A stretch of 64,000 nucleotides of DNA, taken from Candidatus Acidiferrales bacterium. GTDB lineage: Bacteria > Acidobacteriota > Terriglobia > Acidiferrales > UBA7541. The notes beneath the pieces were generated by a model. That model saw only the letters and a list, made by a program, of their open reading frames with translations. It ran no database searches and was not told where the DNA came from. Position 1 is the stretch's first letter, and each line of letters starts with the position of its first letter. Positions 17,371 to 45,904 of this stretch are shown here, piece after piece. Position numbers and translations under genes: made by a program. The stretch covers positions 9,904 to 73,903 of the forward strand of contig DATGHO010000038.1 in the NCBI GenBank assembly GCA_035307965.1. Direction: 5' to 3'.

Positions 17371-19455
17371 ATGCCCACCGCAAAAGCTTCCCGAACTTCA
17401 ATGCCGCCGCGCGCCGATTCCGCTCAGCCGCAGCGCCGCGCACCCTCTACCGAGCCGGGCGACGGCCACAACAATAAGCCCTCCGTTCCGCTTGAATCCG
17501 TCATCATCACTGACGACCTCGGTAAGCGCCCTTCACGCCGCCCTCAGTTCGCCGCGGAGAATCGCGTATTGCTCGCGCTGGCGCAGGACATCGCGGATTG
17601 CCCGGAGCGCGTTTTCGACAAACTGGCGCACGGTGCTCTGGAACTTTGCCGCGCCCACTCCGCCGGCTTCACCGTGCTTGATGAGGACACCAATATCTTT
17701 CGGTGGCGCGCCGTTTCCGGACAATGGGCTGCGCATACCGGCGAAGTCGCGTCGGCAAATGTTGCTATTTGCAGTACGCTGCTTGAGCGGCCCGCTGCGC
17801 AACTCTTTCGCCGTCCGGAGCGCCACTTCACCTATCTGGCCGCGATTACCCCTCCTATTGAAGAGGGCCTGCTGGTCCCGTTTTACTCCAAAGGCAAGCT
17901 CGCCGGCGCCCTGTGGGTGTTGGCTCACGACCAGTCGCGGCGCTTCGATGCGGAGGATCTTCGCTTGGTCACTGACCTTGCCGCGTTCGCCGCAGCGGGA
18001 TACCAAATTTTGCGCGCCGCAGAGGCCGATGAGAAGGCTGACGCGGTGCGTTTGCGCAAGGTCAGCACAGAACTGATTCAAGCGGGCGATACAGGCGCCC
18101 TCTACACCAAAATTCTCGACGCCGCCATTGCCGTGATGCGTTCCCAGATGGGCAGCCTGCAGATGCTTTATCCCGAGCGCGGCGAGCTGCGGCTTCTGGC
18201 TTACAAAGGCTTTCATCCCAACTCGGCGAAGTTCTGGGAATGGGTGCGGCCCGCATCCGCCAGCACTTGTGGAATGGCTTTGCAAACTCGCGGGCGGATC
18301 ATTGTGCCGGACGTTGAGAATTGCGCCTTCATGGCCGGCACTGAGGACCTTCACTTCTATCGCAAGTCCGAAATTCGCGCCGTGCAATCCACGCCGCTGA
18401 TTTCCCGCTCCGGCGTTTTGCTGGGCATGATCTCCACTCATTGGAAGCAGCCGCACGATCCTTCGGAGCGCGACCTGCGCTTGCTGGACATCCTCGCGCG
18501 CCAGGCGGCGGACTTCATCGAGCGAACTCGGGCCGAAGCAGCGCTGAAGCGAGCCAACGATAAGCTCGAAGAGCGAGTGCAGGCGCGCACGCGCGAATTG
18601 CAGCAGCAGGTTAGCAAGACGCAGCGCGCCGAGGACGAGCTTCGCGCGGTGACTGCGCGCCTGTTCAAAATTCAGGATGAAGAGCGGCGCTACGTCGCTC
18701 GCGAGCTGCATGCCGGCGCGAGCCAAACGCTGGCGGCGCTGTCCATGAACCTTGGCAGGATCGCGCAAAATGTGGCGCGCCCCGATACACTTTTCGAAGT
18801 GGTGCAGGAATGCAACACTTTGATCGATAATCTGACGCGCGAAATCCGCACTGTTTCGTATCTTCTTCATCCCCCGCTGCTCGAGGATCTGGGCCTCGGC
18901 TTTGCGCTGCGCATTTACGCCCAGGGATTTTCCGAGCGCAGCGGCATTCGCGTCGAGGTCGAAGAAGACGAGAGTCTCGAGCGCCTGCCCAAAGATTCCG
19001 AGATTGCCGTCTTTCGTGTGATTCAGGAGAGCCTCACGAACATCCATCGCCACTCCGGCGCGTCTTCTGCGAAAATTCGCGTCTCTCACAACGATGGCGG
19101 CCTGCAAGTGAAAATCACCGACAATGGCAAAGGCATTTCCGCGGAAAAGCAGCGCGAACTGGCGGCCTCGGCGGAATCCGGCGTGGGCATCCTCGGCATG
19201 CGTGAACGCATTCGCCAGCTTGGCGGGACGTTCGAAATTACCTCGGGCATTCCGGTCGCGGGCGATGGGGTGACCCAGAGCAATACCGCTGCGTTTTCTG
19301 GGGCGTTCTCGCTGAATAGCGCGGCGGCCTCAACCGCTGAGGAGCGGGGCAAGCGGCGCGCCGCGAATCCCGGCACCTGCGTTAGCGTGACGTTGCCGCT
19401 GGCCAACGCCGCCCCTGGCGCACGGGGGGGGGGCAGCAAGCAGGTGAGCCGTTGA
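17371..19455 (+). CDS. GAF-domain sensor histidine kinase (HisKA_3 / NarX-DesK type, HATPase_c)
   Basis: Two GAF-like regions precede a coiled coil. The H-box is RELHAGASQTL and the N/G boxes are LTNIHRHSGA and GVGILGMRERI. No cognate response regulator is adjacent. Confidence 0.85.
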   Translation: MPTAKASRTSMPPRADSAQPQRRAPSTEPGDGHNNKPSVPLESVIITDDLGKRPSRRPQFAAENRVLLALAQDIADCPERVFDKLAHGALELCRAHSAGFTVLDEDTNIFRWRAVSGQWAAHTGEVASANVAICSTLLERPAAQLFRRPERHFTYLAAITPPIEEGLLVPFYSKGKLAGALWVLAHDQSRRFDAEDLRLVTDLAAFAAAGYQILRAAEADEKADAVRLRKVSTELIQAGDTGALYTKILDAAIAVMRSQMGSLQMLYPERGELRLLAYKGFHPNSAKFWEWVRPASASTCGMALQTRGRIIVPDVENCAFMAGTEDLHFYRKSEIRAVQSTPLISRSGVLLGMISTHWKQPHDPSERDLRLLDILARQAADFIERTRAEAALKRANDKLEERVQARTRELQQQVSKTQRAEDELRAVTARLFKIQDEERRYVARELHAGASQTLAALSMNLGRIAQNVARPDTLFEVVQECNTLIDNLTREIRTVSYLLHPPLLEDLGLGFALRIYAQGFSERSGIRVEVEEDESLERLPKDSEIAVFRVIQESLTNIHRHSGASSAKIRVSHNDGGLQVKITDNGKGISAEKQRELAASAESGVGILGMRERIRQLGGTFEITSGIPVAGDGVTQSNTAAFSGAFSLNSAAASTAEERGKRRAANPGTCVSVTLPLANAAPGARGGGSKQVSR

Positions 19456-19523
19456 CGGTGGATTCAGCAAGCCGCTTCGAGTTGTGATTGTGCGATGAGC
19501 GTCAGTTAGCCTCCGATATTCCC

Positions 19524-19648
19524 AGTGTCCGAAAACGGACATTCGCGCTAAAAAAACGGCGAAAAAACTCGATTAGAAATGGCCTCCCTCGTTTGTTTTG
19601 TGTAAGTTGCGTCATGTTCTAATTTCCCATAGAAACTCGATTAGAATT
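19524..19648 (+). repeat. 125-nt intergenic element, copy A (second copy at 57070..57194)
   Basis: Hand alignment with 57070..57194 gives 105/125 identities, no gaps, same orientation. The element contains the GTCCG-aaaa-CGGAC hairpin and ATTAGAA...TTCTAAT...ATTAGAA inverted motifs. Confidence 0.85.
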
Positions 19649-19736
19649 TTTGAGGCGGCGTGAAACGCGAAGCTACGGGTCGCGGATGGTGGCGGGTGAG
19701 TTTGAGAACACTCCGCTCACAATGCGGCGAAAGTTA

Positions 19737-19790
19737 TCGATTAGAAAAATGGAAGTGGCTGAAGAGGAGCGAGTTAGGCGAATTTCTAAT
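19737..19790 (+). repeat. Partial third copy of the tcgATTAGAAA ... TTTCTAAT hairpin module
   Basis: The 8-bp perfect inverted repeat ATTAGAAA (19740-47) / TTTCTAAT (19783-90) has the same arms as copies A and B. Confidence 0.6.
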
Positions 19791-19972
19791 TTTTTGATGC
19801 AGTGGCGAGTGGCTAGTGGCGAGTGACTAGATGGTTTGCGCTCCACAGCTGCGCAAATAGGAAGTCGAGAATCTGCCCGTCTGTTCCATTTTGGGAATTG
19901 AGTGCTGGCGATTGGCGCTGGCTTTGACTGCGGCGCGGGCGGCGAATTGGAGGTGCGTCCTGACATCGGCCA

Positions 19973-20227
19973 GTGGTAGCACGGAGCGGGCGCGGCGGGC
20001 AAGGGAATTGCAGCGAATGGGGAAAAACGATGAGTGAATGGGTGAGCGGGATCGTGCATGGGCGGCGCGCGATTACGCCGGAAACGGCGCTGCGGCTCGG
20101 GCGACTGTTCGGCACCACGGCGGAGTTTTGGGTGAATCTGCAGACGCGTTATGACCTGGAAATGACGCGCGGCCAGCAGGAGAAGAAGGTGGAGCGGGAA
20201 GTGCAGCCATTGCGGACTTTTGGATGA
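19973..20227 (+). pseudogene. Truncated/decayed HigA-family (XRE HTH) antitoxin remnant
   Basis: Only the C-terminal part survives in frame: ...SGIVHGRRAITPETALRLGRLFGTTAEFWVNLQTRYDLE... The usual N-terminal ~40 aa and any higB partner are missing. Upstream sequence is similar only in shifted frames. Confidence 0.6.
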
Positions 20228-20335
20228 ATCGAAAGCGCACGCTGGGTAATCTGCAAGGCTGGAAAAGCGAAAAGCCGCGTTTCCGCGGCCATTGTGCTTC
20301 TCTCAAATTTGCGACTGGCTTGCAGCCGGTGAAGT

Positions 20336-21346
20336 CTAGCGGGTCTTTACTGTCGCGCGCTCGCTCTGCATGGGAAGATGCTTCGGCTGGGAAGATGGAA
20401 GCTCATTTTCTCCGCTGCTGCAGCCAATGGGTTCAGCTGCCTCTAAGAACCCTTCGATGACGTTTTTCAGTCGAGCCAGGGCGCCCAGGGTACGAGCCTT
20501 TTCGAAATCAGACACGAACACGTCTCGGAAAAAGCCTCCTCTTGCGCCCTGTTCTAGCTCTTTTTCTACGCCCATCAGGGCGTCGATGAAGTCGTTCACC
20601 TTTTGCTGCAGAGTCTTTTTTATCTCAGTCCCGAGGCGGGTTTTTCCGTAGACCGAGTCGGCCAGTTCTTTCCGAGCCAAGTCATATATTTCAATGAGGG
20701 GCTTGCCAGGATTCTTGATGACTGTTGTCATGAACTTGGCAGTGACAAAGCGATTTGACAGGTGATTCTGTTTGATGAAAGTTGCGGTCTCAGCTTGCCT
20801 GCGGTGATCGTCAAGTCTTCCCAACTGGTGGGCGATTGTATAGTCCAGTTCCCCCTCGAAGAATTGCTCGCGAAGTTTGGGTGAGAGTCGGACGATTCTC
20901 ATGCGTTCGCGTAGTTGCTCCGCCTTGACCCCCAGTTTTGGCGCGACCTTGCCCCATTCGTCGGGACGGTCCCAAACGCCCAAAGCTTTGAGGCCCGTTT
21001 CTAGTGCAGTGACTTGCTCTTGAAATGTATAGTCGCGTGTTTGCATCATCCGACTGATTTTCCGGACGAGCAAATCGTTCTCGCTTGGCCGAGGAATAAT
21101 AATTGCGCTGAGGGTCTTCAGTCCCCCGGCCTTCGCGGCTCTCCACCTCCGTTCACCATCGAACAGGTCGTAAATAACTCTGCCCCGTTCATTGCCACGG
21201 GCAAACACCTGAATGGGGTCTGTCTGCCCTATCTGGGTAAGATTCTCCGCCAGCGAGTCAATATCGGCGGAATCAAATGTTTTCCTTAGGTTATCCGGGT
21301 CCGGCTGGATGTCCTCGATTGCGATTTCGCGAATGTTTTCTTTCAT
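20336..21346 (-). CDS. ParB/Srx-fold N-terminal domain protein (ParB-like CTPase/nuclease superfamily) with unrelated C-terminal half
   Basis: The N-terminal motif is IEDIQPDPDNLRK and the arginine box is DGERRWRAAK (GxRRxRA). An HTH-like middle segment follows. The gene lies 5 nt downstream of the preceding ORF and the sequence is lower-GC. Confidence 0.75.
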   Translation of the reverse strand: MKENIREIAIEDIQPDPDNLRKTFDSADIDSLAENLTQIGQTDPIQVFARGNERGRVIYDLFDGERRWRAAKAGGLKTLSAIIIPRPSENDLLVRKISRMMQTRDYTFQEQVTALETGLKALGVWDRPDEWGKVAPKLGVKAEQLRERMRIVRLSPKLREQFFEGELDYTIAHQLGRLDDHRRQAETATFIKQNHLSNRFVTAKFMTTVIKNPGKPLIEIYDLARKELADSVYGKTRLGTEIKKTLQQKVNDFIDALMGVEKELEQGARGGFFRDVFVSDFEKARTLGALARLKNVIEGFLEAAEPIGCSSGENELPSSQPKHLPMQSERATVKTR

Positions 21347-21351
21347 GATCT

Positions 21352-22131
21352 CTAAGGTTTCGACCTATCTAATTTTGCCGCGCCCTCACCCAACTCTTTT
21401 GGATCCTTCCCGATTATTTGCTTAAATATCTCATACATTTCGATGAGGTCGGAAAGTTCTTTATTTGCTCTGCGCTGAAGGTCAACATATGCCTTCGTTT
21501 GTTTCGCAAATATACGGAGCCGCCTGTCCTTTGGGTTCGTAAGCTGCTCGAAGTCTCCGAAGGTCATTCCACTATCCATGTTCAGTGCGGCCAGCCGCAG
21601 AGAACGAATTTCAATTGCGTTGTATCGCTCTTCAAATTCCTTCAGTAGCGCTTTGCGGTCAGGCCCTGGTGGAAGGCCCCGGGCATAACTTTCCAATGAC
21701 TTTGCTTGGGCCAGCTGGACGCGCGTCGCAGAACGAGTGCGAGTTCGGAATTCCTTTGACACCGTGTGTTCGATTTGGCCCGCCGCAAAGTAGCCCAGTA
21801 TTGGCGTTCGAAAGCCGTTCACTACTTTTGCGACTAAGTGCCAGCGGATCTCGCGGCCACGCCGATGCCAAATGAATCCCCACCCCTCAAAAGCTCCCTC
21901 AAACATGGCCCTGCATGCCACCCGCACCTTCTCAAATTCCTCATTTGCATGCCGCAGCACTCTTGCATCATACGCGGCGCGTTGCAGCGGGTCTGTTGGT
22001 GGTGGGCCTTCTAAAAGGCGGCCTATTTCTTCGCGGGTAAGGCCGGCCAAATTATTCTGTTCGATAATCTCTTGAACCCGAAGGCAGTACCGCTGGAACA
22101 CTGGGTCGAGAATGAATGAGGGCATGGCCAT
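21352..22131 (-). CDS. Hypothetical protein (about 260-275 aa), first gene of the ParB-like cassette
   Basis: This is a long clean ORF with helical, charged composition. No Walker A or any other motif was recognised. Alternative starts are ATG 22125 and GTG 22179. Confidence 0.6.
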   Translation of the reverse strand: MAMPSFILDPVFQRYCLRVQEIIEQNNLAGLTREEIGRLLEGPPPTDPLQRAAYDARVLRHANEEFEKVRVACRAMFEGAFEGWGFIWHRRGREIRWHLVAKVVNGFRTPILGYFAAGQIEHTVSKEFRTRTRSATRVQLAQAKSLESYARGLPPGPDRKALLKEFEERYNAIEIRSLRLAALNMDSGMTFGDFEQLTNPKDRRLRIFAKQTKAYVDLQRRANKELSDLIEMYEIFKQIIGKDPKELGEGAAKLDRSKP

Positions 22132-22259
22132 ATCTCCGAGAACTGGTGAGTGTATCACGTCCGAGTCCGCGAGGCGCACTATAGTTTATGCGATCATACT
22201 TACGACATGGGTACACATCGTTAAGCCACCAACCGGCTGGAGAGCCTACGCCACTTCGA

Positions 22260-24305
22260 CTACTTCAAGTCGGGAGGCAAGGGGTCGGACCAGATGTAGT
22301 GGGCGAACCAGTTGTAATTTTCCTGGGTGACGGCGCGAAGCTCTTTGGGTTTGGTGATGGGATGGCCGAAGCCGGTGTAGAGGACGAACTTCACGGGGAC
22401 GCCGCGGTCTTGCAGTCCATGATACAGCTCGAAAGAGTCCGGGACCGGGACGCGCGCGTCTTTGCTGCCTTGCTGGATGAGCGTGGGCGTGTGCGCGTGG
22501 TTGATGTAAGTGATGGGCGAAGTTTTTTTGTAAATTTCGGGATCGCTCCAGGGAGTGGCGCGCAAATACTGGCGCGTGAAGGGCGTGATGTCGGTGTTGA
22601 CGTAGTAGGTCATCCAGTCGGAAATGCCGGCGCCGACGGACACGGCGCAGAACTGGTCGCTGTAAGTGGTGATGAACGCGGAAATGTAGCCGCCTTCGCT
22701 CCAGCCCATGGAGCCGACGCGTTTGGGGTCCACGTAGCCCTGCGAAATTAAGTAATTCACGCCGGAAATGACGTCAGCGTAATCTCCTACGCCTAAATTG
22801 CGGACGTTGAGCGAGCGGAATTTTGCGCCGTAGCCAGCGGAGCCGCGATAGTTGGGCTCGAGAATCAAAGCGCCGCGAGCGGCGAAAAGTTCAGTGGGAT
22901 AGTAGCGGTCGGGCGAGCGCGTGGCGCGGCTGGTTCCGGTGGGCCCGCCGTGGATTTCGACGAGCAGAGGATATTTTTTCGAGGGATCGAAATTGGCGGG
23001 CTTGATGAGGATGCCTTCGACGGGCGTGCCATCGCCGGATTTCCAGTGGATGACTTCGCGAGTGGCGAGATGGAATTGCGAATATTGAGCGGAGATGTCG
23101 GTGAGTTTTTTGGGCAAAAAGAAATTTACGGGCGAAGTGTAGATTTCGAAGAAGGCGTTGTCGGCGGCGGCCGTGTAGGCGACGCGGTGGAAGTTGTGAG
23201 TGAAGCTGAAGCCGCCAGCGGCGATTTTGTCGGGCTTGGAGATGCGCGTGACGGCTTCCGTTTGCGGATTCAAGCGGAAGAGATAGGCGTAGGTGCGCTG
23301 CTGGGCTTCGAAATAAATTCCGTCGGGCGACCATTTGATGGCGCGAGCGTCTTCGTCAAAATTGGCGGTGAGGATTTTTGGCGCGCCGCCGGAAGCGGGC
23401 ACAACGTCAATGACGGAATTCGCGTAGAAGAAATATGGGTTGCCGTTAGCGGTGTTGAAGGCAATTTGCGAGCTGTCAGGCGACCAGACGGGATTTTCGC
23501 TGGGCGTGGGAGCGCCGGCGAGTTTTTTGACGGATTTATCGGCGACAGTGAGGACGTAAATATTGGCGGTGCCGAGGTCGGCGAGCGCAGGATCTTTGCT
23601 GGCGGTGAAGGCGATGCGCGTGGAGTCGGGCGACCAGCGAAAATCGCCGACGGTGAAATTTTCGCCGGAGGTGAGGCGCGCGGGCTTGGGAAGTTCGGTG
23701 GCGTTGGGCGAAGGGACGTCAATGAGCCAGAGATGCGTCATGGTGTAATCGTCGCCGATGATTTTGTAGTCGCCGTATTTTTTGACGCGCGCTTTGTGGG
23801 CGTCGGATTCGGGATCAGGAGAAGTGAAGGCGATGTGGCGGCCGTCGGGAGAAAAATCGAAGGAGTCGACGCCGGTTTCGACGTTGGTGATTTGGCGGGC
23901 TTCGCCGCCGGTTGGGGAAATTAAATAGAGCTGCGCGGTATCTTTTTTGGCGTTGGGGAGCGAGGATTCGCGCGAGGAAAGAAAGGCGAGCTGTTGGCCG
24001 TCGGGCGACCAGCGCGGATCGGTGCCGGACTTTGCGCCTTCGGTGAGCGGGAAAGTTTGGCCGGTGGCGATGTTGGCGAGCCAGATTTGCTGGACGAAGG
24101 CGTTTTGGTCCCAGTCGGTGTGCGTGAGTTGGTAGGCGACGAAGCGGCCGTCGGGAGAAATTTGCGGATTGGAGACGGATTTCATGGAGAGCGCTTGCTC
24201 GATGGTAGGCGCGGAGGGCGCTGCGGAGTTGGATTGCGCGAGCGCGGCGCAGGGGAGAAGAAAAATTGCAACAACTAAGGGCGCGATTCGCAGAGCTTTT
24301 TGCAT
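22260..24305 (-). CDS. S9-family serine peptidase (prolyl oligopeptidase / acylaminoacyl peptidase) with N-terminal beta-propeller
   Basis: A signal peptide is followed by TolB/WD40-like repeats (SPDG...). The nucleophile elbow is GWSEGGY. C-terminal Asp/His regions are present. Confidence 0.9.
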   Translation of the reverse strand: MQKALRIAPLVVAIFLLPCAALAQSNSAAPSAPTIEQALSMKSVSNPQISPDGRFVAYQLTHTDWDQNAFVQQIWLANIATGQTFPLTEGAKSGTDPRWSPDGQQLAFLSSRESSLPNAKKDTAQLYLISPTGGEARQITNVETGVDSFDFSPDGRHIAFTSPDPESDAHKARVKKYGDYKIIGDDYTMTHLWLIDVPSPNATELPKPARLTSGENFTVGDFRWSPDSTRIAFTASKDPALADLGTANIYVLTVADKSVKKLAGAPTPSENPVWSPDSSQIAFNTANGNPYFFYANSVIDVVPASGGAPKILTANFDEDARAIKWSPDGIYFEAQQRTYAYLFRLNPQTEAVTRISKPDKIAAGGFSFTHNFHRVAYTAAADNAFFEIYTSPVNFFLPKKLTDISAQYSQFHLATREVIHWKSGDGTPVEGILIKPANFDPSKKYPLLVEIHGGPTGTSRATRSPDRYYPTELFAARGALILEPNYRGSAGYGAKFRSLNVRNLGVGDYADVISGVNYLISQGYVDPKRVGSMGWSEGGYISAFITTYSDQFCAVSVGAGISDWMTYYVNTDITPFTRQYLRATPWSDPEIYKKTSPITYINHAHTPTLIQQGSKDARVPVPDSFELYHGLQDRGVPVKFVLYTGFGHPITKPKELRAVTQENYNWFAHYIWSDPLPPDLK

Positions 24306-29865: not shown

Positions 29866-30878
29866 AGCAATCCCCGGCTGCGCAGCCCATCGAGCAGGAA
29901 ATGAAAATAGATGAGGCCGGCATAGTTTTTCCAGGGCGCGAGAAGTTTGCGCGTTTTGGCATAGTCGGGGCGAACGCGAAGGCGAAGGTGTTTCTGTAAA
30001 TTGTTCCAGCCGCCGACGTCGTCTCCCGGAAAAATATTGAGGCGGCCCATGCCGCGGAGAAGCGCGTATTCGGCGGACCAGCGGCCGATGCCGCGAATTG
30101 CGGTGAAACTTTCGAGGGCGGTTGCGTCGTCGAGTTCGCGGAATGATTCAAGATTCAACTCGCCGGAAGCGACTGTGCGGCTCAAGTCGAGAATGGCGCG
30201 CTCTTTGTTGCGGCTGTAGCCGAGCGCACGCAGGGAGCCAGTAGAAAGATTGGCGAGGTCCGCAGGGGAAGGGCAGGCCCGCGCTGGCGCGCCCGCATTC
30301 GCTGAGGGAGTTGCAGGGGCAGAGCGGCCGAAGCTCTGTACAAGACGGTTGAGGAGCATAATGCCGACGTTCAGGGAAACCTGCTGGCACGAGATGGCGT
30401 TGAGAAGAGCTTCAAAGATGGTGGGATAGCGGGGAGGTTTGAGTCCGGTGAAGTCAGCGATGAGCTCGCGCAGGGGTTTTTGACTGGCCGCGAACGAATA
30501 AAAGCCGCGAAGGTCGCTGGCGGCGCCGAGCATGCGTTCGAGGGTGGCGCGCAGATAATGATGTAGTTCACGTGTTGCATGAGGGACACGCGCGGTGACG
30601 CTCAGACACGGGCGCGCGACAGAACCGGTTTGCTCGACGGCGACTTCGGCGGTCAGGGCGCCGGTTTTTCCATCGAGCAGAAGTACGCGGCGATAAACAT
30701 GGCCGTCCCAGCGATCGAGGATGTTTTCGGGGCGGCGCCGTAAAGCCCAGACAGTGAGGTCCAGGCGAAAGGGCGGGAGCGGATGAATGGTAAATGAAAG
30801 CGATGGACGCGCAGCTGCGGACGCAACGCGACGAGGAGAAGAGCGTTTTGCTGAGAGATTTCGTGAGCCCTGTGGCAT
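29862..30878 (-). CDS. DNA-3-methyladenine glycosylase II family protein (AlkA-like, HhH-GPD)
   Basis: The HhH-GPD region is ...LRALGYSRNKERAILDL...IRGIGRWSAEYALLRGMGRLNIFPGDDVG. The start was set at the ATG at 30878. The 168-codon upstream extension in the track was rejected. Confidence 0.8.
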   Translation of the reverse strand: MPQGSRNLSAKRSSPRRVASAAARPSLSFTIHPLPPFRLDLTVWALRRRPENILDRWDGHVYRRVLLLDGKTGALTAEVAVEQTGSVARPCLSVTARVPHATRELHHYLRATLERMLGAASDLRGFYSFAASQKPLRELIADFTGLKPPRYPTIFEALLNAISCQQVSLNVGIMLLNRLVQSFGRSAPATPSANAGAPARACPSPADLANLSTGSLRALGYSRNKERAILDLSRTVASGELNLESFRELDDATALESFTAIRGIGRWSAEYALLRGMGRLNIFPGDDVGGWNNLQKHLRLRVRPDYAKTRKLLAPWKNYAGLIYFHFLLDGLRSRGLL

Positions 30879-30972
30879 GTTGTTATCATCTATCGTAAAT
30901 GCGGAAAGATGCAAACGTAGCCGGTGAGCGGCGGTGGCGGCGCCGCAAGTTTTCACAACGAAGGGAGTCACG

Positions 30973-31695
30973 GTGGGCACAATTCCAATGAAGCTGAAGC
31001 AGCGCAGGGAGATTGCCGAAGGAACGATGGGATTCTGGCTGGAGAAGCCTGCGGGATTTGAGTTTAAGGCCGGACAGGCGATGGAAGTGAAGCTGAATGA
31101 TCCACCGGAAACGGATGGGGAGGGGAATTCGCGGGCGTTCTCGATCGCTAGCGCGCCGCACGAGCCGGACATTATGTTCGCGACGCGCATGCGGGATACG
31201 GCGATGAAGCGCAGTTTGAAGAAAATCCCGCTGGGCACGGAATTGGAAGTCGATGGCCCATGGGGCGATCTGAAATTGCACAGCAGGGAGCAACGCCCGG
31301 CGGTGTTTCTTGCGGGAGGGATTGGCATTACGCCGTTCCGCAGCATGGCGCTGGACGCGGCGCAAAACAAATTGGCGCACAAAATCTGGCTCTTCTATTC
31401 CAATCGCCGTCCCGAGGATGCCGCTTTTCTCGACGATTTGATGCGCGCGGAAAAAGAGAATCCCAACTTCAAATTAGTTGCCACCATGACCGAGATGGAT
31501 AAATCGAAGCGGGAGTGGAAAGGGAAGCGCGGATTCGTCGACAAAGCGATGCTCTCGGAAGCAGTGGGTGACTTGAGCGCGCCGATTTTTTACATCGCCG
31601 GGCCGGCGGGCATGCTGAACGCCATGCGCAAGATGCTGCTCGATGCAGGTGTGAACGAGGATGATATTCGCGCCGAGGAGTTCGCCGGATATTAG
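30973..31695 (+). CDS. Ferredoxin-NADP reductase-type FAD/NAD(P)-binding oxidoreductase
   Basis: The FAD motif is RAFSIAS and the NAD(P) motif is FLAGGIGITPF. The start is uncertain (GTG 30973 after AAGGGAG, ATG 30988 or GTG 30934). Confidence 0.8.
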   Translation: MGTIPMKLKQRREIAEGTMGFWLEKPAGFEFKAGQAMEVKLNDPPETDGEGNSRAFSIASAPHEPDIMFATRMRDTAMKRSLKKIPLGTELEVDGPWGDLKLHSREQRPAVFLAGGIGITPFRSMALDAAQNKLAHKIWLFYSNRRPEDAAFLDDLMRAEKENPNFKLVATMTEMDKSKREWKGKRGFVDKAMLSEAVGDLSAPIFYIAGPAGMLNAMRKMLLDAGVNEDDIRAEEFAGY

Positions 31696-31696
31696 A
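31664..31696 (+). repeat. 33-bp direct repeat, copy 1 (3' end of the oxidoreductase CDS including its TAG)
   Basis: The sequence atattcgcgccgaggagttcgccggatattaga is identical to 32134..32166. Confidence 0.95.
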
Positions 31697-31709
31697 GTGA
31701 GGTCGGAAG

Positions 31710-32087
31710 CTATGCTTTGTATTCTCGCTGCCTGGCTTCGTCGAGTTGACCGAGAATTTCTCTTGCCCGGGGAAGGTCCGCTTTGAGAACCGAAACTGCA
31801 AAATGAATCAGCGGGCGGCGTTTCACAAATGCAGAGAAGATCGTGAACTTCGCGAGCATCAAGAACCAAGATGCGGGCTTCGTTTCGAGAGATTCCTTGC
31901 AACTCGAGGGGATGCCGGCAGATTCAAGCGCGGCGAGAATTTGTTCCAGATGTTTCCTCTCGCTGCCTTCCCATGCTGCGACTACAGGGATGGCAAGGGC
32001 TTCTTGTGAAGAGACCAGAGGGATTTGGCAACCACTGCACACTAACACTCCCTGGCGGTACTCCGCTTTGCAGAGTGGGCAGTACAT
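31710..32087 (-). CDS. Small zinc-ribbon plus DUF2007-like protein (125 aa)
   Basis: The N-terminus is MYCPLCKAEYRQGVLVCSGCQIPL (CxxC-x11-CxxC), followed by an alpha/beta domain with ...ESAGIPS... The start was set at the ATG at 32087. Confidence 0.65.
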   Translation of the reverse strand: MYCPLCKAEYRQGVLVCSGCQIPLVSSQEALAIPVVAAWEGSERKHLEQILAALESAGIPSSCKESLETKPASWFLMLAKFTIFSAFVKRRPLIHFAVSVLKADLPRAREILGQLDEARQREYKA

Positions 32088-32133
32088 GATGGAGTTAGAG
32101 TCTATCCGAAAATAACATGCCGAAGGGAAGCGA

Positions 32134-32166
32134 ATATTCGCGCCGAGGAGTTCGCCGGATATTAGA
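32134..32166 (+). repeat. 33-bp direct repeat, copy 2
   Basis: It is identical to 31664..31696. The spacing between copy starts is 470 bp. Confidence 0.95.
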
Positions 32167-32204
32167 ATGGGGAGCGGGCGGGCTAAGGCGCCAGTGGCAC
32201 AGAG

Positions 32205-32840
32205 TTGGAGAGGTGGATTTTGGCGGAGATTACGGCGCTGTTTTTCGATATTGGCGGGGTGCTGCTGACGAACGGCTGGGACCGCACCGAGCGCATGGCC
32301 GCGGCGAAGAAATTCAATCTCGAGTGGAACGATTTCGAGGAGCGGCACGAACTGGTGCTGCACGCTTTCGAAGTGGGCGACATGGAGCTCGAGGAATATC
32401 TGGACCGCGTGATTTTCTATTGCCGGCGCGATTTCACGCGGAAGGAATTCACGGATTTCATCAAGGCGCAGTCGCAGGCTTTGCCAGGAACATTGGATTT
32501 ACTCGCGCGCATCGCGGCGGGGCAACAATACCTGATCAGCTCGCTGAATAATGAATCGCGCGAGATGAACGCGTATCGTATCGAGACATTTCATTTGCGG
32601 GATTATTTCGATGTATTTTTGACTTCGTGCTATCTGGGCGTGCGCAAGCCGGACGCAGCGATTTATCAGGCGGCGTTGAGCATCACCCAGAGGAAAGGTG
32701 AAGAGTGCGTGTTCGTGGATGACCGCGCGTTGAATTTGGAATGCGCGCGGGAATTGGGGATGCGCACGATTCACTTCAAAGACGCCGCGCAACTCGAGAG
32801 AGAGCTGAAGGAACTGAAAGTGGCCATTGCGCCAGCGTAA
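32205..32840 (+). CDS. HAD-superfamily hydrolase (subfamily IA)
   Basis: Motif I is FFDIGGVLL. Later motifs include LNNESRE and VFVDDRALN. The start is uncertain (TTG 32205 or TTG 32220). Confidence 0.8.
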   Translation: MERWILAEITALFFDIGGVLLTNGWDRTERMAAAKKFNLEWNDFEERHELVLHAFEVGDMELEEYLDRVIFYCRRDFTRKEFTDFIKAQSQALPGTLDLLARIAAGQQYLISSLNNESREMNAYRIETFHLRDYFDVFLTSCYLGVRKPDAAIYQAALSITQRKGEECVFVDDRALNLECARELGMRTIHFKDAAQLERELKELKVAIAPA

Positions 32841-32843
32841 ACA

Positions 32844-32884
32844 AAAACCACAGGTCTTCAAAAGGCGAAATTCTGCGCTACAGA
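32844..32884 (+). repeat. Short variant of REP module R2
   Basis: The sequence aaaaaccacaggtcttcaaaaggcgaaattctgcgctaca shares the ...ttctgcgctaca end and the stem arms of R2. Confidence 0.5.
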
Positions 32885-32908
32885 AGTTGAGAAAGGGAGA
32901 CGGAGAAT

Positions 32909-34366
32909 ATGAGCGGGGAAATTGAGCCGCATCTGTTTGTGATATTCGGCGCGACCGGAGATTTAACGGGGCGGAAGATTTTGCCCTCGCTGAACGGGCT
33001 GATTGCGCGGAACGCGCTGGGGCCGAAGAGCGTGATCCTGGGCGTCGGCATGGAGACGCAGTACGACGATGAGAGCTTTCGCGCGAAATGCCGCGACGAT
33101 CTGGCGGGCCAGGGGATTCCGCAAGAGCAGATTGCGCAAACCGTTTCGGACAAGCGCATTTTCTATCAGACGATTGGCAAAGGAACGCCGGAGGATTACA
33201 AAAAGCTGGGCGAACGCATCGAGCAGATCGAAAAAGCAAACGAACTGCCGGGGAATCGCGTTTTTTATTTGGCGCTGCCGCCGAAAGTTTTCCCCATCGC
33301 GATTACGGCGCTGGGGCGCGCTGGGCTGAACAAAAGCAAGGGCTGGACGCGGCTGGTGATCGAGAAGCCGTTTGGGCGCGATTTGGAGTCGGCGCAAGAG
33401 CTCAACCGGGTGGCGCATGAGAATTTTGACGAGCAGCAGATCTACCGAATCGACCACTATTTGGGAAAAGAGACGGTGCAGAATTTGCTGGTGTTTCGAT
33501 TTGCGAATGCGCTATTCGAGCCGCAATGGAATCGCGACAGGATTGAAAGCGTGGAAATCACCGTGGCGGAATGCCTGGGCGTGGAGCACCGCGCGGCGTA
33601 TTACGAAACCGCGGGAGCGCTGCGGGACATGATACAAAATCATTTGACGCAACTGGCCACGCTGGCGGCGATGGAGGTGCCGGAGGCGTTCCGCTCAGAA
33701 TCGATCCGGCGCGAGAAAGTGAAAGTGCTGCATTCGGTGCTGCCTATTCGCATCGAGGACGTGGTGCTGGGGCAATACACAGCGGGAAAAATCGAGGGCA
33801 AGGATGTACCGGGCTATCGGGAAGAGGAGGGAGTCGCGAAGGATTCGCAGATAGAAACGTTCGTGGCGCTGCGGCTGGAAATCGAGAACTGGCGCTGGCA
33901 CGACGTGCCGTTTTTCCTGAGAACCGGGAAGCGGCTGGCGGCGCGTTCCAGTCAAATCGTGGTCAATTTCCGGCGGCCGCCGGTGTGGATTTTCAAGCCG
34001 TTCGATGGGAATACGATTCGCGCGAATTCGCTGGTGATTGCGATTCAGCCAGACGAAGGATTTGATTTGTATTTCGAAATCAAGTCGCCGGGGCAGGGCG
34101 TTAAAATTCAGACCAGCGATTTGCATTTCCGCTACTCGGAGGTGTTCCAGCCGCTGCCGGATGCGTACGAAACGCTGCTGCTGGATATTTTGGAAGGCGA
34201 TATGACGCTGTTTGTCAGCGATGATTGGGTGGAGGCTTCGTGGCGGTTGTACACGCCGCTGCTGAAAAATAAGCCGCGCGTGCTGCCATACGCGGCGGGA
34301 AGCTGGGGACCGGCGGAAGCGGACCAGTTGCTCAGCGATTTGGGGCGGACATGGCAGCAGGCATAA
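32909..34366 (+). CDS. zwf: Glucose-6-phosphate 1-dehydrogenase
   Basis: The motifs [10 protein letters not shown] and RIDHYLGKE are present. The protein is 485 aa. Confidence 0.95.
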
Positions 34367-35109
34367 ATCACGCGGCGCGAGTGTATGCGGATTTGGACGC
34401 GTTGAGCCGCGCAGCTGTTGAAGAATGCGTTCGCGCAGCGAATCAGGCGGCCGGCGCGCGCGGGCGTTGTTTGATTGCCCTTTCCGGCGGGCACACGCCG
34501 GAGCGAGCGTACCGGCTGTGGGCGACGGAATATCGCGAGAAGATGCCGTGGGCGAAGACGCATTTCTTCTGGGGCGATGAGCGGTTTGTTCCGGCAGGCG
34601 ATGCGAAGAGCAATTATCGCATGGCGCAGGGAACGCTTTTCAACAGCGCGCCGGTGCCGGCGGAGAATATTCATCCAATAGAGACGAATTTTGCGACGGC
34701 GGATGATGCGGCACGGGCATACGAAAAAGTGCTGCGGAATTTCATCGACGAAGGCGAGCCGTCGTTTGACGTGATGTTCCTGGGCCTGGGGCCAGAGGGG
34801 CACACCGCGTCGCTTTTCCCGGGGTCTCCGGCGCTTGCAGAGGAAGAAAGATGGGTGGTGGGTGTGCGCGCGCCGGCGGAGCCTCCCGTGAGAATCAGCC
34901 TGACGTTTCCGGTGCTGCGGCGCGCGCGCGAGACGTATTTTCTGGTGGCGGGCGCGGACAAACAGGAAATCATCTCCAAGTTGCGGCGCGAATCGCCGGC
35001 GGAAATCGCGGATCTGCCGGTGGCAATGCTTAAGCCCGAGGGCGAAGTGATTTGGTTTTTGGACCAGGCGGCTGACGGCGCGCATTCACAGAAGAAAAGC
35101 GCCACTTAA
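34351..35109 (+). CDS. pgl: 6-phosphogluconolactonase
   Basis: The motifs LSGGHTP and FWGDERFVP...SNY are present. The gene overlaps the zwf end by 16 nt. Confidence 0.9.
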
Positions 35110-35227
35110 TGCTGTGGCGCGCGTGGGGAACATAATCGGGCGAAATTGCATCTAAGAGATGGCCGATGCAGTCGAATCTATCCGCAGAATTGGTATTGGC
35201 GAGATGGCGGCGTCATGATATATAGGA

Positions 35228-35827
35228 GTGCAGCAAGGAATGAGCGAACAGAATAGCCCAAAACCCCCAAATTTTGCCGCCTCGATAGAGCAGCCACAAC
35301 CTTCTTCCTTTGGACGTGAATTAGCAATCTGGGGCCGCGACGCGGCCATCGCGGTGGGACTGGCCGTGCTCATCATTGTGTTTTTGTACCAGCCCGTACA
35401 GGTGCTGGGAACGAGCATGGCGCCGCTGTTGAGCGATCAGGAGCGGATTTTCATCAACAAATTTGTCTACCGCTTTGAGCCGATTCATCGCGGCGACGTG
35501 GTGGTTTTCTGGTATCCGCGGGATACTTCGCAGTCGTTCATCAAGCGCGTGATTGGATTGCCGGGAGACACAATTCAAATTAAGGCGGGCGAGCTTTACG
35601 TTAACGGCAAACACGTGCCGGAGCCGTATGTGCCGGCGAAATATTTCGATGATTCGAGCTATGGCCCGATTACCATTCCGGCGGACGAATATTTTGTGAT
35701 GGGAGATCACCGCGACAGCTCCAACGACTCGCGGATTTTTGGGCCGGTGGCGCGGAAGTATATTTACGGCAAGGCGGTGTTCGCGTACTGGCCGTTCCGG
35801 GAATTCGGCGAGATTTCCGCGCCGTGA
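35228..35827 (+). CDS. lepB: Signal peptidase I
   Basis: The motifs GTSMAPLL (Ser), KRVIGLPGD (Lys) and GDHRDSSNDSR are present. Confidence 0.9.
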   Translation: MQQGMSEQNSPKPPNFAASIEQPQPSSFGRELAIWGRDAAIAVGLAVLIIVFLYQPVQVLGTSMAPLLSDQERIFINKFVYRFEPIHRGDVVVFWYPRDTSQSFIKRVIGLPGDTIQIKAGELYVNGKHVPEPYVPAKYFDDSSYGPITIPADEYFVMGDHRDSSNDSRIFGPVARKYIYGKAVFAYWPFREFGEISAP

Positions 35828-35893
35828 GTTGGCAAATTCGCCGCCGAAATGAGCAGCAGAACTGGTATAAGATGAGCCGCAACGGAGGACACA

Positions 35894-37114
35894 CTGCAGC
35901 AGCCGCACGAGGGCAGCGCGATACTAGCGCTGGAAGACGGAAGAGTATTTAAGGGGCGCGCGGCGGGCGCCCGTGGCCGCCGTGGCGGCGAAGTCGTTTT
36001 TAATACCAGCCTTACCGGTTACCAGGAAGTTTTCACCGATCCCAGTTATGCAGGCCAGATTGTCTGCCTGACGTATCCCCACATAGGAAATGTTGGCGCG
36101 AACCTCGAGGATGAGGAATCAGCGCATCCGCACATCGAAGGGCTGATTGTGCGCGAATTTGCGCATGTTTCATCGAATTGGCGCGCCAGGGAAACGGCGG
36201 ATGCTTATCTGGAGCGCTACAAGATTCCGGTGATTTGGGACATTGACACGCGCGCGCTGGTGCGGCATTTGCGAATGGCGGGCGCGCTGCGCGGAATTGT
36301 GGCCACAGACGGGAGCGCCGCGGAAAAACTGGTGGAAGAGGCGCGGGCGCTGCCTTCGATGGCGGGACGCGAGCTGGCGAGCGCAGTGACGTGCGCGAAG
36401 GAATATCGCTGGGAGCGCGGATCGATTCCGCTGGCGTCGAGTTTTGCGGCGCATGCGGCGGCGAGCGCAGGCGGCGCCGGACCGCTCTGGCAGGCAGCCG
36501 CAGCGGCGATGGCAAAAAGGGAAGCGGATCCTGGCGTGCGACGCCACAAAGTGGTGGCGTACGATTTTGGGATTAAGCAGAACATTCTGCGGCAACTCGT
36601 GGACCACGGCTGCGATGTGACGGTTGTTCCCGCGGCGACACATGCGGAAGATGTGCTGGCGATGAAGCCGGACGGAGTTTTTCTGTCGAATGGGCCGGGC
36701 GATCCGGAGCCGGTGACGTTCGCGGTGCAAAATATTCGCAGGCTTATGGGGCGCGTGCCGATTTTTGGGATTTGCCTTGGGCATCAGTTGTGCGGACTGG
36801 CGCTCGGCGGAAAGACGTTCAAGCTGAAGTTCGGGCATCACGGATCGAATCATCCGGTTAAGAATTTGCTGAGCGAAAAAGTGGAAATCACCGCGCAGAA
36901 TCACGGTTTTTGCGTGGATCCGGATTCGCTGCCGTCCAGCGAAGTGGAAATTACGCACGTGAATTTGAACGACCACACAAACGAGGGCATGCGGCACAGG
37001 AATTTGCCGATGTTCAGCGTGCAGTATCACCCAGAGGCGTCGCCCGGCCCGCACGACGCCCGCTATTTGTTCGCCCAGTTCACGAAGATGATGGAGGCGA
37101 CTAGGGCTAAGTGA
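35894..37114 (+). CDS. carA: Carbamoyl-phosphate synthase small (glutaminase) subunit; start codon unresolved (CTG 35894 proposed)
   Basis: The conserved N-terminus [12 protein letters not shown]...[37 protein letters not shown] lies upstream of the first canonical start (GTG 36149). GGAGGA lies 4 nt before the CTG at 35894. The GATase motifs GICLGHQ and HPE are present. Confidence 0.85.
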
Positions 37115-37132
37115 CGAGAGCACGTCGACGAT

Positions 37133-40100
37133 ATGAGTAAACGCACTGACATAAAGAAAATCATGATTATCGGGTCGGGGCCGATTGTCATTGGGCAGGC
37201 GTGCGAGTTCGACTACTCCGGCACGCAGGCGTGCAAGGCGCTGCGCGATGAGGGTTACGAAGTGGTGCTGGTGAATTCGAATCCTGCGACGATTATGACC
37301 GATCCGGAAGTCGCCGAGCGCACGTACATCGAGCCGCTGACGACCGGCTATCTCGAAATGATCATTGCGCGCGAACGGCCCGACGCGCTGCTTCCAACCG
37401 TGGGCGGGCAAACCGGATTGAATACTGCGGTGGAATTGGCGGAGAGCGGCATCCTGGGAAAATACGGTGTGAAGCTGATTGGCGCTTCGTTGCGCGCCAT
37501 CAAAGTGGCCGAGGACCGCTTGCAATTTAAAGACGCGTGTCAGCGCGTGGGGCTGGAAGTGCCGGCGTCGGCGGTCGTGAGTGACATCGCGAAAGCGGTG
37601 AAGCTGGCGGACGATCTGGGATATCCGGTGGTGATACGGCCATCGTTCACGCTGGGCGGGACGGGCGGGTCGATCGCGTATAACCGCGAGGAATTCACCG
37701 ACGCGATTGCGCGGGCGCTCGATGCGAGTCCGGTGCACGAGGCGCTGATTGAAGAGTCCGTGCTGGGCTGGAAAGAATTCGAGCTGGAAGTGATGCGCGA
37801 CCATCGCGACAACTTCGTGGTGATTTGCTCGATTGAAAATTTCGACCCCATGGGAATTCACACTGGCGATTCGATTACTGTAGCGCCGGCGCAGACGCTG
37901 ACAGACAAAGAATATCAACGCATGCGCGACGCAGCGGCTGCGGTGATTCGCGAAGTGGGCGTCGAGACGGGCGGGTCGAATATTCAGTTCGCGATTGACC
38001 CGCAAACGGGGCGCATGGTGGTGATCGAGATGAATCCGCGCGTCTCGCGCAGCTCAGCGCTGGCCAGCAAGGCGACAGGCTTTCCCATCGCAAAAATTGC
38101 CGCAAAACTGGCGGTGGGTATGACGCTCGATGAAATTCCGAACGACATCACCAAGAAAACGCCGTCGTGTTTCGAGCCTACGATTGATTATGTGGTGGCG
38201 AAAATTCCCAAATGGCAATTCGAGAAATTCCCCGGCTCGGACACCACGCTGACCACGCAGATGAAATCCGTAGGCGAAGTGATGGCCATTGGCCGGACAT
38301 TTTCGGAGGCGCTGGGGAAGGGCATTCGTTCGCTGGAGCCGCATGCGCCGTGGCGCGCGCCGGCGGAAATTGTGGATGCGGTGTTGCACGAAAAATTGCA
38401 CACGCCCGGGCCGGATCGCATTCACTGGCTGTTGACGGCGTTGCGGCGCGGAATGAAAGTCGAAGAGATAAACGCGCTGACGAAAATCGACCCATGGTTT
38501 TTGCGGCAGATGGAAGACGCCGTCGCCGTGGAAAAAGAAATTGCCGCGACGAACGTGAATTCCGTTTCGAGCGAGCTGCTGAAAAAAGCAAAGCGAAATG
38601 GCGTAAGTGACGAGCAACTGGCCCAGCTTTGGCGAACGTCACCGGAGCAAGTGCGCGCAACGCGGGAAAAGCGCGGTATTCGGCCAGTATTCAAGCGCGT
38701 GGACACGTGCGCGGCGGAATTCGAATCGTTCACGCCGTACATGTATTCGACCTACGAAGAAGAGGATGAAGCGGACACTAGCGCGCGGCGGAAAATCGTG
38801 ATTCTGGGGAGCGGACCAAACCGCATCGGGCAAGGAATTGAGTTCGATTATTGCTGCTGCCACGCAGCGTTTGCGCTGAAGGACGACGGCTACGAAACGG
38901 TGATGGTGAATTGCAATCCGGAGACAGTTTCGACGGATTACGACACGTCCGACCGGCTGTATTTTGAGCCGCTGACGCTCGAAGACGTGCTTTCGGTGAT
39001 CGACCGCGAAAAACCGGAAGGCGTGATCGTGCAATTCGGCGGGCAGACGCCGCTCAATCTAGCGCTGGACTTGAAGCGCAACGGAGCGCCCATTATCGGC
39101 ACCGCGCCGGAGTCGATTGATCTGGCGGAGGACCGCAAGCGGTTCGGCAAACTGCTCGAGGAACTGAAAATTCCGCAGCCCCGCAACGGAACGGCGCTGA
39201 GCCCCGCCGAGGCAGTTAGCGTCGCGAAGGAAATTGGTTTGCCGGTGCTGGTGCGGCCCAGCTACGTGCTGGGCGGGCGCGCCATGGTGATTGCGTTCGA
39301 TTTGAAAACAGTCGAGGAGTGCGCCGCGCAAGCCGTGCGGCTGGGCAGCGGTTCGAGCGCGGAGCGGCCGATTCTTGTGGATCAATTCTTGGAAGAAGCC
39401 ACGGAAGTTGATGTCGACGCGCTGGCGGATGGCAGCGACGTGGTCATCGCGGGAATCATGGAGCACATCGAAGAGGCGGGAATTCATTCGGGAGATTCTT
39501 CCTGCGTGCTGCCTTCCGTGACGCTCAAGCCCGAGGTACTGGGGCGCATTCGCGAATATACGGCCAAGCTGGCGAAGGCGTTGCGCGTGGTGGGCCTGAT
39601 GAACGTGCAATATGCGATTCAGCGCGACACGGTTTACGTGTTGGAAGTGAATCCGCGCGCGTCGCGCACTGTGCCGTACGTGTCGAAAGCTACCGGTGTG
39701 CCGCTGGCGAAAGTGGCGGCGCGTTTGATGACCGGAAAGAAATTGCGCGACATAAAGCTGGCGGTGAATGATTTTGACGGGGTCCCGGAACTGCGCAGCA
39801 AGAATTATTATTGCGTGAAGTCGCCGGTATTTCCGTTCAGCAAATTCCGCGGAGTGGACACCATTTTGGGGCCGGAGATGCGTTCGACGGGCGAAGTGAT
39901 GGGCGTGTCGCCGAATTTCGGGCTGGCGTTCGCGAAGGCGCAACTCGCCGCGGGTCAAAAATTGCCGCTGCAAGGAACAGTGTTCATCAGCGTGAACGAT
40001 CACGACAAAAGATTTTTGCCGGCCTTGGCGAAGGATTTGACGGCGGCAGGTTTGAATTTGATTGCCACACGCGGCACGGCTGCGGCGCTGCGCTCGCTGG

Positions 40101-40420
40101 GCATCGAGGCTGGATCGGTGTACAAGGTGAATGAAGGACGGCCCAACATCGTTGATCTGGTGAAGACCGGGAAGGTCAACTTGATTATCAACACGCCGCT
40201 GGGGCGCGAATCGTTCTATGACGAGAAATCCATACGGCGCGCGGCGGTGCGATACATGATGCCGTGCATCACCACGATTTCGGCGGCGGTGGCCGCGGCG
40301 CGCGGGATTCGCGCCATGTCTGAGGGCACGGGAAATGTGGCCGCGCTGCAGGATTTGCATGCGATGGAAGCAAACGCGAATGCGCCGGCGCCGACGCAGC
40401 GCGTGACTTCGGCAAGCTAG
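37133..40420 (+). CDS. carB: Carbamoyl-phosphate synthase large subunit
   Basis: The protein is 1095 aa with duplicated ATP-grasp halves and an MGS-like C-terminus. The N-terminus [30 protein letters not shown] is typical. Confidence 0.97.
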
Positions 40421-40538
40421 TTATTGCAAGCGCATAAATAGACGATGAATTTTCGGAGAAACCGCCTGCCACGATTTCCGCTCGAGATTCGCTGAACTGC
40501 TATCGCACTCATAGATTATCTTCTGCTAGAATCTCCTC

Positions 40539-41450: not shown

Positions 41451-41549
41451 CCTAATTCCTGCGCTGCAACATTTGCCATTTCGCATCTGTTGATTATTCG
41501 CGCGCGCGGGTTGCTGCGACCGAATGCCGCGTGTATCATCACATCCTCC

Positions 41550-44279: not shown

Positions 44280-44289
44280 GCGGCCTAGA

Positions 44290-45884: not shown

Positions 45885-45904
45885 CACAGCAGGCGAGAGG
45901 CAAA

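Follow-up and report, generated by a model that had tools for sequence, protein, structure and literature searches.

Two 125-nt segments of the window (the whole 64-kb stretch of DNA analysed here), located on the plus strand at 19524–19648 (copy A) and 57070–57194 (copy B), are members of a lineage-restricted non-coding repeat family with about 50 members per genome in soil Acidobacteria. With a probability of roughly 0.5, we consider the family to represent a new, family-restricted class of modular, non-autonomous non-coding repeat cassette of variable intergenic hot spots. The host assembly is an Acidobacteriota MAG of the order 'Ca. Acidiferrales' (3.68 Mb, 41 contigs, 57% GC, 87% complete). 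As an earlier note on this DNA had reported, the two segments align without gaps at 105 of 125 positions, copy A starting 68 nt past the stop of the kinase gene (ORF 17371–19455) and copy B 4 nt past the TGA (57063–57065) of plsC; the match amounts to 84% identity, with E ~5e-33 against the whole genome. That note had described the two segments as marking two islets; they turned out to be no private pair but two of 12 full-length copies (110–142 bits in an nhmmer search with a profile built from the best copies) and of some 50 modules in the 3.68-Mb assembly. The same profile search returned 20 related modules above 50 bits and about 50 at E < 0.01, dispersed across more than 15 contigs. Copy A, which with 141.6 bits is the best of the family, and copy B (135.2 bits) both belong to the 'AACT' subfamily, as judged by alignment.

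The anatomy of the element was derived from full-length alignments of 20 and 39 copies and from a core alignment of 154 distinct cores, with column entropies calculated over 104 cores. From 5' to 3', it contains a hairpin (GTGTCCG-AAAA-CGGACAT), two A-runs phased about one helical turn apart, a left repeat, a spacer, an inverted box (TTCTAATT), a short subfamily-specific stretch and a right repeat, in agreement with the previously described arrangement tcgATTAGAA ... TTCTAAT ... tcgATTAGAA. The spacer has a fixed length of 38/39 nt, and its TTTGTTTT and AGTT(A/G) (AGTTR) blocks are nearly invariant, with hypervariable, near-random patches of 13 nt before and 8 nt after these conserved blocks. 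The left repeat consists of four variable nucleotides plus CGATTAGAA, and the right repeat copies it, the four variable bases included: the four bases before the left CGATTAG are identical to those before the right one in 88–95% of 104 elements, with all four bases used at these positions, mutual information of up to 1.59 bits and different flanks in different subfamilies (AACT, CTTG, TCCG, TCAG, TTAT and ATTTG among them). The flank identity thus defines a direct repeat of 13–17 nt that evolves in concert within each element. No other strong covariation was seen in the core, and this one links equal rather than complementary bases; among the 104 cores, mutual information gave no sign that the two hypervariable patches pair with each other or that the 4-nt flank pairs with the end of the spacer. 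A mini-ORF in the core (ATG...TTTGTTTTGTGTAA) was rejected, as its frame is broken between the length classes.

In copy A, the 5' hairpin lies at 19525–19542 (compensatory changes in 35 copies; MFE and centroid folds), the left direct repeat (AACT plus CGATTAGAA) at 19566–19578, the TTTGTTTT block between the hypervariable patches at 19592–19599 (column entropies), the inverted TTCTAATT, which pairs with the right-hand ATTAGAA (G.T/A.C counts and centroid fold), at 19617–19624, and the right direct repeat (AACT plus CGATTAGAA) at 19634–19646, both repeats being delimited by flank identity and mutual information. The corresponding parts of copy B, all likewise on the plus strand, are the hairpin GTGTCCG-GAAA-CGGACGT (57071–57088; pair counts and folding), the left (57112–57124) and right (57180–57192) direct repeats, again AACT plus CGATTAGAA (sequence and flank identity), and the inverted TTCTAATT (57163–57170; sequence and pair counts); the hairpin noted earlier is accordingly GTCCG-AAAA-CGGAC in copy A and GTCCG-GAAA-CGGAC in copy B. 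The family also includes truncated and tandem copies, among them a shorter module type with the left repeat and the inverted box and without the right repeat, which often stands in tandem and in the same orientation beside a full copy and is also found upstream of other copies. The partial third module mentioned in the earlier note is real and of this shorter type: it reads GTTAT-CGATTAGAA, 37 nt, TTCTAATT at 19730–19791 on the plus strand (CGATTAGAA at 19738–19746, TTCTAATT at 19784–19791), in tandem with copy A. A heptamer array (GTGGCGA GTGGCTA GTGGCGA GTGACTA) at 19802–19829 is a frequent companion of the element, with similar arrays by other copies. Heptamer tandem arrays of the GTGGCGA, GTGACGA, GTGGTCA or GCTGGAG types were seen beside the element in several genomes, including one at ~57470–57495 of the window, one 3' of the kinase gene in G019 (L167), the closest relative, and one in G044 (L174). 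In long intergenic regions of two other genomes, TCGATTAGA motifs of the same repeat family occur together with heptamer arrays. One truncated copy (L018, contig C40:3476–3606 of this genome, G000) lies 170 nt upstream of an ORF whose N-terminus is presumably similar to that of a zinc-ribbon transposase of the IS1595 type.

The most widely shared part of the element is an 80-nt core, CGATTAGAA - 38/39 nt - TTCTAATT - 9–14 nt - CGATTAGAA (the exact pattern ends with CGATTAG), which occurs 25 times in this genome and in 21 of 24 genomes of the genus, with 3–35 copies each; the reversed pattern, used as a control, gave no match in the same genus genomes. Among 301 evenly sampled genomes of the class, the core pattern was confined to the window's own family: it was found in all five genomes of the own genus and, with 1–4 copies each, in a few genomes of two sister genera (approximately 4 of 11 in g16 and 3 of 7 in g17), and was absent from 250 genomes of twelve other families. 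A species-wide scan located the core on at least 113 contigs, nearly all of them labelled Acidobacteriota or Acidiferrales. Rfam gave no match at gathering thresholds within the 64-kb window, and only chance-level matches at E up to 10 in the region 56900–57700. An inspection of neighbouring genes revealed that the copies in this genome are intergenic: eight of the 12 full-length copies follow a same-strand gene at a distance of 0–76 nt, the upstream gene is divergent for the other four and for about half of all modules, around half of the modules lie between convergent gene ends, and some core-only copies are found 20–60 nt upstream of gene starts.

The earlier note had called the element structured, which holds for its two short hairpins but not for the element as a whole, as the minimum free energy of the complete sequence was no better than that of shuffled sequences on either strand (z −0.1 to −1.25). 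The RNAalifold consensus contained a sole short helix, formed by the inverted box and the right repeat. Compensatory changes, suggested earlier as a check on the hairpins, were found in the 5' hairpin (TA to GC, CG to TA and GC to AT among 35 copies), but complementary covariation was seen nowhere else in the element. Among the non-Watson-Crick pairs of the 5' hairpin in these 35 copies, G.T outnumbered A.C by 50 to 3 (30 to 3 if the terminal pair, a G.T in the consensus, is left aside), and the same bias was seen for the inverted box when paired with the right repeat (49 G.T, 8 A.C) or the left repeat (22 G.T, 5 A.C). Since a G.T pair turns into an A.C mismatch when the complementary strand is read, pairing matters on the plus strand, be it as RNA or as single-stranded DNA. 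These counts, which are our main evidence on this point and fit either nucleic acid, suggest that the element acts in single-stranded form. The best-conserved blocks of the element are unpaired. The separation of conserved blocks by hypervariable patches devoid of complementary covariation and the lack of an overall fold argue for recognition of sequence rather than of an RNA fold.

On the opposite strand, beyond the 3' end of many copies, we found a unit composed of a promoter, a 5' hairpin and a terminator. Its promoter is strongly conserved (CCTTGACTT-TTAGTTAACTCT..GGTATACA, with TTGACT-N17/18-TATACA), and seven of the nine genome-wide sites with the pattern TTGAMN-N2-5-GTTAAC are promoters of such units. 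Among 27 sequences, the 5' hairpin is usually CGGCTGG-loop-CCAGCCG, with compensatory CG/UG/UA/CG variants, and the terminator GCCGC(C/G) shows swaps between CG and GC and is followed by a long T tail (TTTTCGCTTTTTATGCGC). The promoter is better conserved than the predicted transcript of ~75–100 nt, whose variable middle often contains AGGAGAAGUGCA. In the window, the candidate small-RNA gene of copy B was identified by scan and alignment at 57235–57362 on the minus strand (−35 TTGACT at 57352–57347, −10 TATACA at 57328–57323, 5' hairpin CGGCTGG..CCAGCCG, terminator at 57272–57252 plus T tail). It combines a predicted promoter, a defined terminator and hairpins kept by compensatory change, which are the features looked for in a small-RNA gene. 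A weak remnant of such a unit (17.2 bits with nhmmer) lies on the minus strand 605 nt beyond copy A, at 20262–20334, with a terminator hairpin at 20273–20290 found by the terminator scan. On the plus strand after copy B, a hairpin GGGCC-AAAAGT-GGCCC followed by TTTTG (57215–57235) was seen in the sequence as a possible but weak terminator, which the terminator scan did not report.

The genome contains 13 copies of the small-RNA family (further members are located at, for example, G000 C40:67112–67234, C18:24280–24400 and C25:62573–62694), and for 11 of these an element follows directly past the 3' end. On contigs of other species, all 17 units lie on the 3' side of the element in convergent orientation, many of them within 1–30 nt, so that the tail-to-tail pairing was found in 28 of 30 cases combined. 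This fixed convergent placement on the 3' side makes the element and the small-RNA gene a tail-to-tail cassette. The candidate small-RNA gene family, which has no counterpart in Rfam, appears well defined, with an unusually conserved predicted promoter.

The position of the element relative to conserved genes was analysed by comparing eight full-length copies with five related, non-independent genomes of the same genus. For seven of the eight, the 5' flank was conserved while at least 1.5 kb of 3' flank was without a counterpart in the five genomes; these seven are copies A and B and five of the six others, for which 1.5-kb flanks were searched, matches were counted at an E of 1e-35 or better and counterparts were found for the hairpin-side flank only. 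The eighth copy, on contig 7 (C7), is part of a 440-nt insert between conserved convergent genes that are separated by a spacer of 30 nt in G019; at this site, G044 and G009 have equally oriented cores that belong to other subfamilies, and an unrelated gene is present in a fourth species. A control region without a copy (30001–50000) was ~97% colinear with the closest relative. At about 100 loci in other species, the nearest ORF was also shorter on the 3' side (median of 169 aa versus 323 aa on the 5' side). All full-length copies tested thus have one orientation at a transition from conserved genes to variable DNA. Random scatter with no link to variable regions, the outcome that the earlier note had set against its proposal, is therefore not what this subfamily shows, given its conserved 5' flanks, its non-conserved 3' flanks and the colinear control.

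Both islets of the window differ between close relatives. Islet A (19404–22261) reaches from the 3' end of the kinase gene to the next conserved gene, colinearity with G019 ending at 19403 and resuming at 22262; at this site, G019 (90% identity) has 4.6 kb of different DNA with a CTTG-type core, heptamer arrays, a small-RNA unit and a PadR-type gene. Islet B (57067–61220, 4.15 kb) extends from plsC to the next conserved gene, which is convergent. In four relatives plsC is separated from this gene by ~50–70 nt and other relatives have other inserts; the closest relative has a small-RNA unit without an element after plsC, followed by different genes. A run of ten G (19423–19432) is present in the last codons of the kinase gene, ~20 nt past the end of homology (19403), and the C-terminus of the kinase differs from that of the closest relative; the run could be a slippage-prone sequence or an assembly problem. 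Placement at an edge, as claimed for the two segments in the earlier note, is therefore a property of the full-length subfamily, where it comes with a fixed polarity (seven of eight tested), but not of every member. A core-only copy on contig 14 (C14:62422–62494) is 98% identical to its counterpart in G019 (C117:129780–129852, L177), the hypervariable patches and a 60-nt upstream module included, while the adjoining gene is 82–94% identical, and here the variable DNA lies on the 5' side of the copy. This suggests that the contig 14 copy is under purifying selection and that some members may have a host function, and the polarity is not universal. Another orthologous pair of cores was less conserved than its flanks. 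The orientation of the copies was not significantly associated with GC skew or gene strand, and in this genome the skew is itself no guide to gene strand.

The element shares with MITEs its small size, non-coding nature, multiple copies and presence/absence polymorphism. However, no terminal inverted repeats were found in the 20- and 39-copy alignments, the 5' end GTGTCCG... being unrelated to the 3' end ...CGATTAGAATT, and no target-site duplication was seen when the C7 insert was compared with the empty site in G019, where the whole spacer differs. The direct repeats inside the element belong to its own sequence. Pairs of occupied and empty sites with sharp boundaries were not found, spacers being replaced rather than simply interrupted, and a nested insertion with a long target duplication was rejected, as none of 31 genomes contained an 'empty' form with the hairpin and a single repeat. 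An apparently separate MITE-like family, bounded by inverted ends (GGTCCGTTGAATTTTGACTGCTATTGTCACGATTA...AATTCAAATGGACC) and located next to ~110 nt of conserved sequence (CCCACTTTCCCACCGCTTCGG...), was noticed at ~67.2–67.4 kb of C34 in this genome, with similar sequences near C33:71.7, C2:92.7, C1:196.3 and C14:62.6 kb. An identical sequence near contig ends of C37 and C39, close to ribosomal RNA-like sequence, reads TTGTCAAAATAACGT-CGATTAGA-TTCTGGCTTA-CGATTAGAAATGGG; a TTGTCA box precedes its two CGATTAGA motifs, which are spaced by 18 nt, and the 9-mer of the element may here be employed in a promoter region.

The features of BOX elements and of BIME/ERIC mosaics that we compare here are established knowledge. 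BOX of Streptococcus pneumoniae and the BIME/ERIC mosaics of enterobacteria are, as is our element, non-coding, ~100–150 nt long and present in tens of dispersed intergenic copies; they likewise consist of combinable modules, are lineage-restricted, contain local hairpins, often lie at the 3' ends of genes and have no enzyme of their own (PMC3184786, PMC2817692). The element differs from them in not being palindromic overall, in its two direct and one inverted 9-mer repeats with concerted 4-nt flanks, in its fixed tail-to-tail pairing with a small-RNA gene and in its polar position at the edges of variable DNA. An assignment to ERIC-like sequences was rejected because no palindrome extends over the whole length (z −0.1 to −1.25, two local hairpins), and one to REP/BIME because the element, instead of being a GC-rich palindrome of 20–40 nt, is 125 nt long, with AT-rich boxes and without a GTAG or CGTC tag. 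Genes for RAYT proteins (PF01797) are present in 28 of 31 genus genomes, some of them in islets 3' of copies, but a link to Y1/RAYT was discarded, each RAYT gene being flanked by its own GTAG-type REPs. The element shares with REP/RAYT and with non-autonomous elements derived from IS200/IS605 the absence of terminal inverted repeats and target duplications as well as one-strand hairpins near both ends; unlike in these systems, its two hairpins are unrelated in sequence and no conserved flanking tetranucleotide was seen. The genus contains separate REP/RAYT systems: RAYT-type Y1 transposase genes of 173–199 aa were observed on C23 (L201:2215–2766) and C9 (L202:2348–2899) and in relatives (L197, L194), with their own REP types on either side (e.g. 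TGTAGGGCCCGATCGG... and CCCACCCTTCGCAGAG...GGATGGGG).

Integron attC sites (123–126-nt VCRs in Vibrio) are similar in size, in their layout of core, inverse core and core and in their association with small accessory genes including HigBA-type pairs, whereas the copies of our element are dispersed over contigs rather than arrayed. An identity with attC was rejected since the boxes are TTCTAAT/ATTAGAA and not RYYYAAC/GTTRRRY, the 39-nt spacer lacks complementary covariation and the element does not form a long imperfect palindrome. The ssr9 module, which is part of the IS110-family element ISPpu9 in Pseudomonas putida, also combines a small-RNA gene that has its own promoter with short repeated boxes, and is multi-copy, partly detached from the transposase gene and found in repeat-rich intergenic DNA (PMC12288879). 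Its boxes are the ends of the IS110 element, and the transposase circularises the module (PMC12288879). The likeness lies in the small-RNA gene and the repeated boxes, the difference in that the present genome is without an IS110 gene. A link to IS110 and its bridge RNA was rejected, as this genome has no DEDD (IS110) match and the 12 of 31 genus genomes with matches show no correlation; in relatives, an IS110 gene is adjacent to the element at one of eight loci. Among 65 ORFs on the 3' side, no protein family was enriched (Pfam assignments were miscellaneous), recombinases and transposases included, and no matching or inverted second copy was found at the far ends of islets A and B.

A role of the element as RNA was considered, in which the plus strand would either form a structure of the 3'-UTR or read-through type, with an effect on the stability or the end of the upstream transcript, or act as an antisense partner or insulator of the convergent small-RNA gene. 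The G.U pairs kept and the A.C mismatches avoided by both hairpins on the plus strand fit this possibility as well as they fit single-stranded DNA, a point against the DNA module; the eight full-length copies 0–76 nt after a same-strand gene and the hairpin with TTTTG after copy B agree with it, and the tail-to-tail layout would make any read-through antisense to the small RNA. We nevertheless regard this explanation as rather unlikely, because the element has no promoter or terminator consensus of its own, the upstream gene is divergent at four of 12 full-length copies and about half of the modules, the overall fold is no better than that of shuffles, complementary covariation is limited to the 5' hairpin, the best-conserved blocks are unpaired, and Rfam has no match for the element. 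The possibility that the element itself is a stand-alone small-RNA gene, one of three raised in the earlier note, is weak, given that scans found neither promoter nor terminator and that covariation was seen in the 5' hairpin only. The data do not separate the three: a mobile repeat is favoured by the subfamilies, by the tandem and truncated copies and by the presence or absence at orthologous sites, although terminal inverted repeats, a visible target duplication and a partner enzyme were all missing, and a recombination hot spot fits the polarity, although neither a recombinase nor a second site was found.

Such a hot spot might be a landing pad, i.e. a site-specific recombination site that captures accessory DNA at its 3' end, which would explain the variable DNA on that side. 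The fixed polarity of seven of the eight tested full-length copies (the eighth being an insert), the different cargo at the same site in different species, the tandem modules in the same orientation and an order of repeat, inverted repeat and repeat that recalls the core, inverse core and core of integron cassettes are compatible with it, but there is no recombinase gene enriched nearby, the far ends of islets A and B have no matching site, the boxes deviate from the attC consensus without a long imperfect palindrome, a core-only copy has the opposite polarity, and homologous recombination in the flanking core genes explains the replacement of islets equally well; we therefore judge it distinctly unlikely. 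Improbable to a similar degree is a cis-regulatory sequence, spread by duplication and kept by selection, to which a host protein would bind at operator, promoter or nucleoid-associated sites. Although invariant boxes at fixed spacing and roughly helical phase with free sequence between them, the phased A-runs, the orthologous copy conserved above its coding flanks and the core-only copies 20–60 nt upstream of gene starts would be expected of such a sequence, orientation and distance to gene starts are inconsistent, about half of the modules have convergent genes on their two sides, the boxes conform to no sigma-70 geometry across the length classes, 4-nt flanks that differ between subfamilies would call for several paralogous binding proteins, and close relatives show a high turnover of copies. 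Promoters of the sigma-70, Bacteroidota, sigma-54 and ECF types were all rejected, as on neither strand did any fit the conserved boxes across the spacer classes.

We thus favour, on the grounds of comparative sequence data, the non-autonomous repeat cassette named at the outset. It is a composite of the element and the convergent candidate small-RNA gene, which ends at or near the right repeat, and occupies intergenic hot spots. Its hairpin end is turned towards the conserved gene, and beyond its 3' end comes variable DNA with other repeat modules, heptamer arrays and small accessory genes, those for toxin-antitoxin pairs included. The multi-copy, lineage-restricted distribution with subfamilies, the tandem and truncated copies, the replacement at orthologous sites with flanking genes 90% identical and the invariant boxes point to a repeat that is copied or exchanged, and the element may accordingly be a non-autonomous DNA module that moves in this manner between hot-spot sites. 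Its hairpins and the three CGATTAGAA/TTCTAAT boxes are candidate recognition sites, which a putative enzyme would read on one strand; judging by the one-strand hairpins and the concerted repeats, its ends or boxes may be recognised in single-stranded form, possibly as DNA rather than RNA. Given the polarity and the fixed small-RNA partner, movement or selection would seem to act on the whole cassette and not on the 125-nt piece alone. A more specific proposal, which would give the cassette a part in bringing in accessory DNA and which we hold to be distinctly unlikely, is that the element and the small-RNA gene form the terminal module of an undescribed kind of mobile islet with one end, or of an integration hot spot, where the strand-specific hairpin end would dock by a core gene, the other side would carry or capture DNA of any length and the concerted 13-nt repeats would mark the start and stop of copying or strand exchange.

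The Acidobacteria in question are abundant, uncultured soil bacteria that are known almost only from metagenome bins, and the element is a practical marker in their genomes for the distinction between core and accessory DNA, and of help in explaining contig breaks and in finding defence and toxin-antitoxin islets. Its direct repeats with concerted flanks and its one-strand hairpins fit none of the usual schemes, i.e. inverted-repeat transposons, REP/RAYT or attC. Should the polarity stem from a mechanism and not from history, an unfamiliar way of moving or capturing DNA would be indicated.
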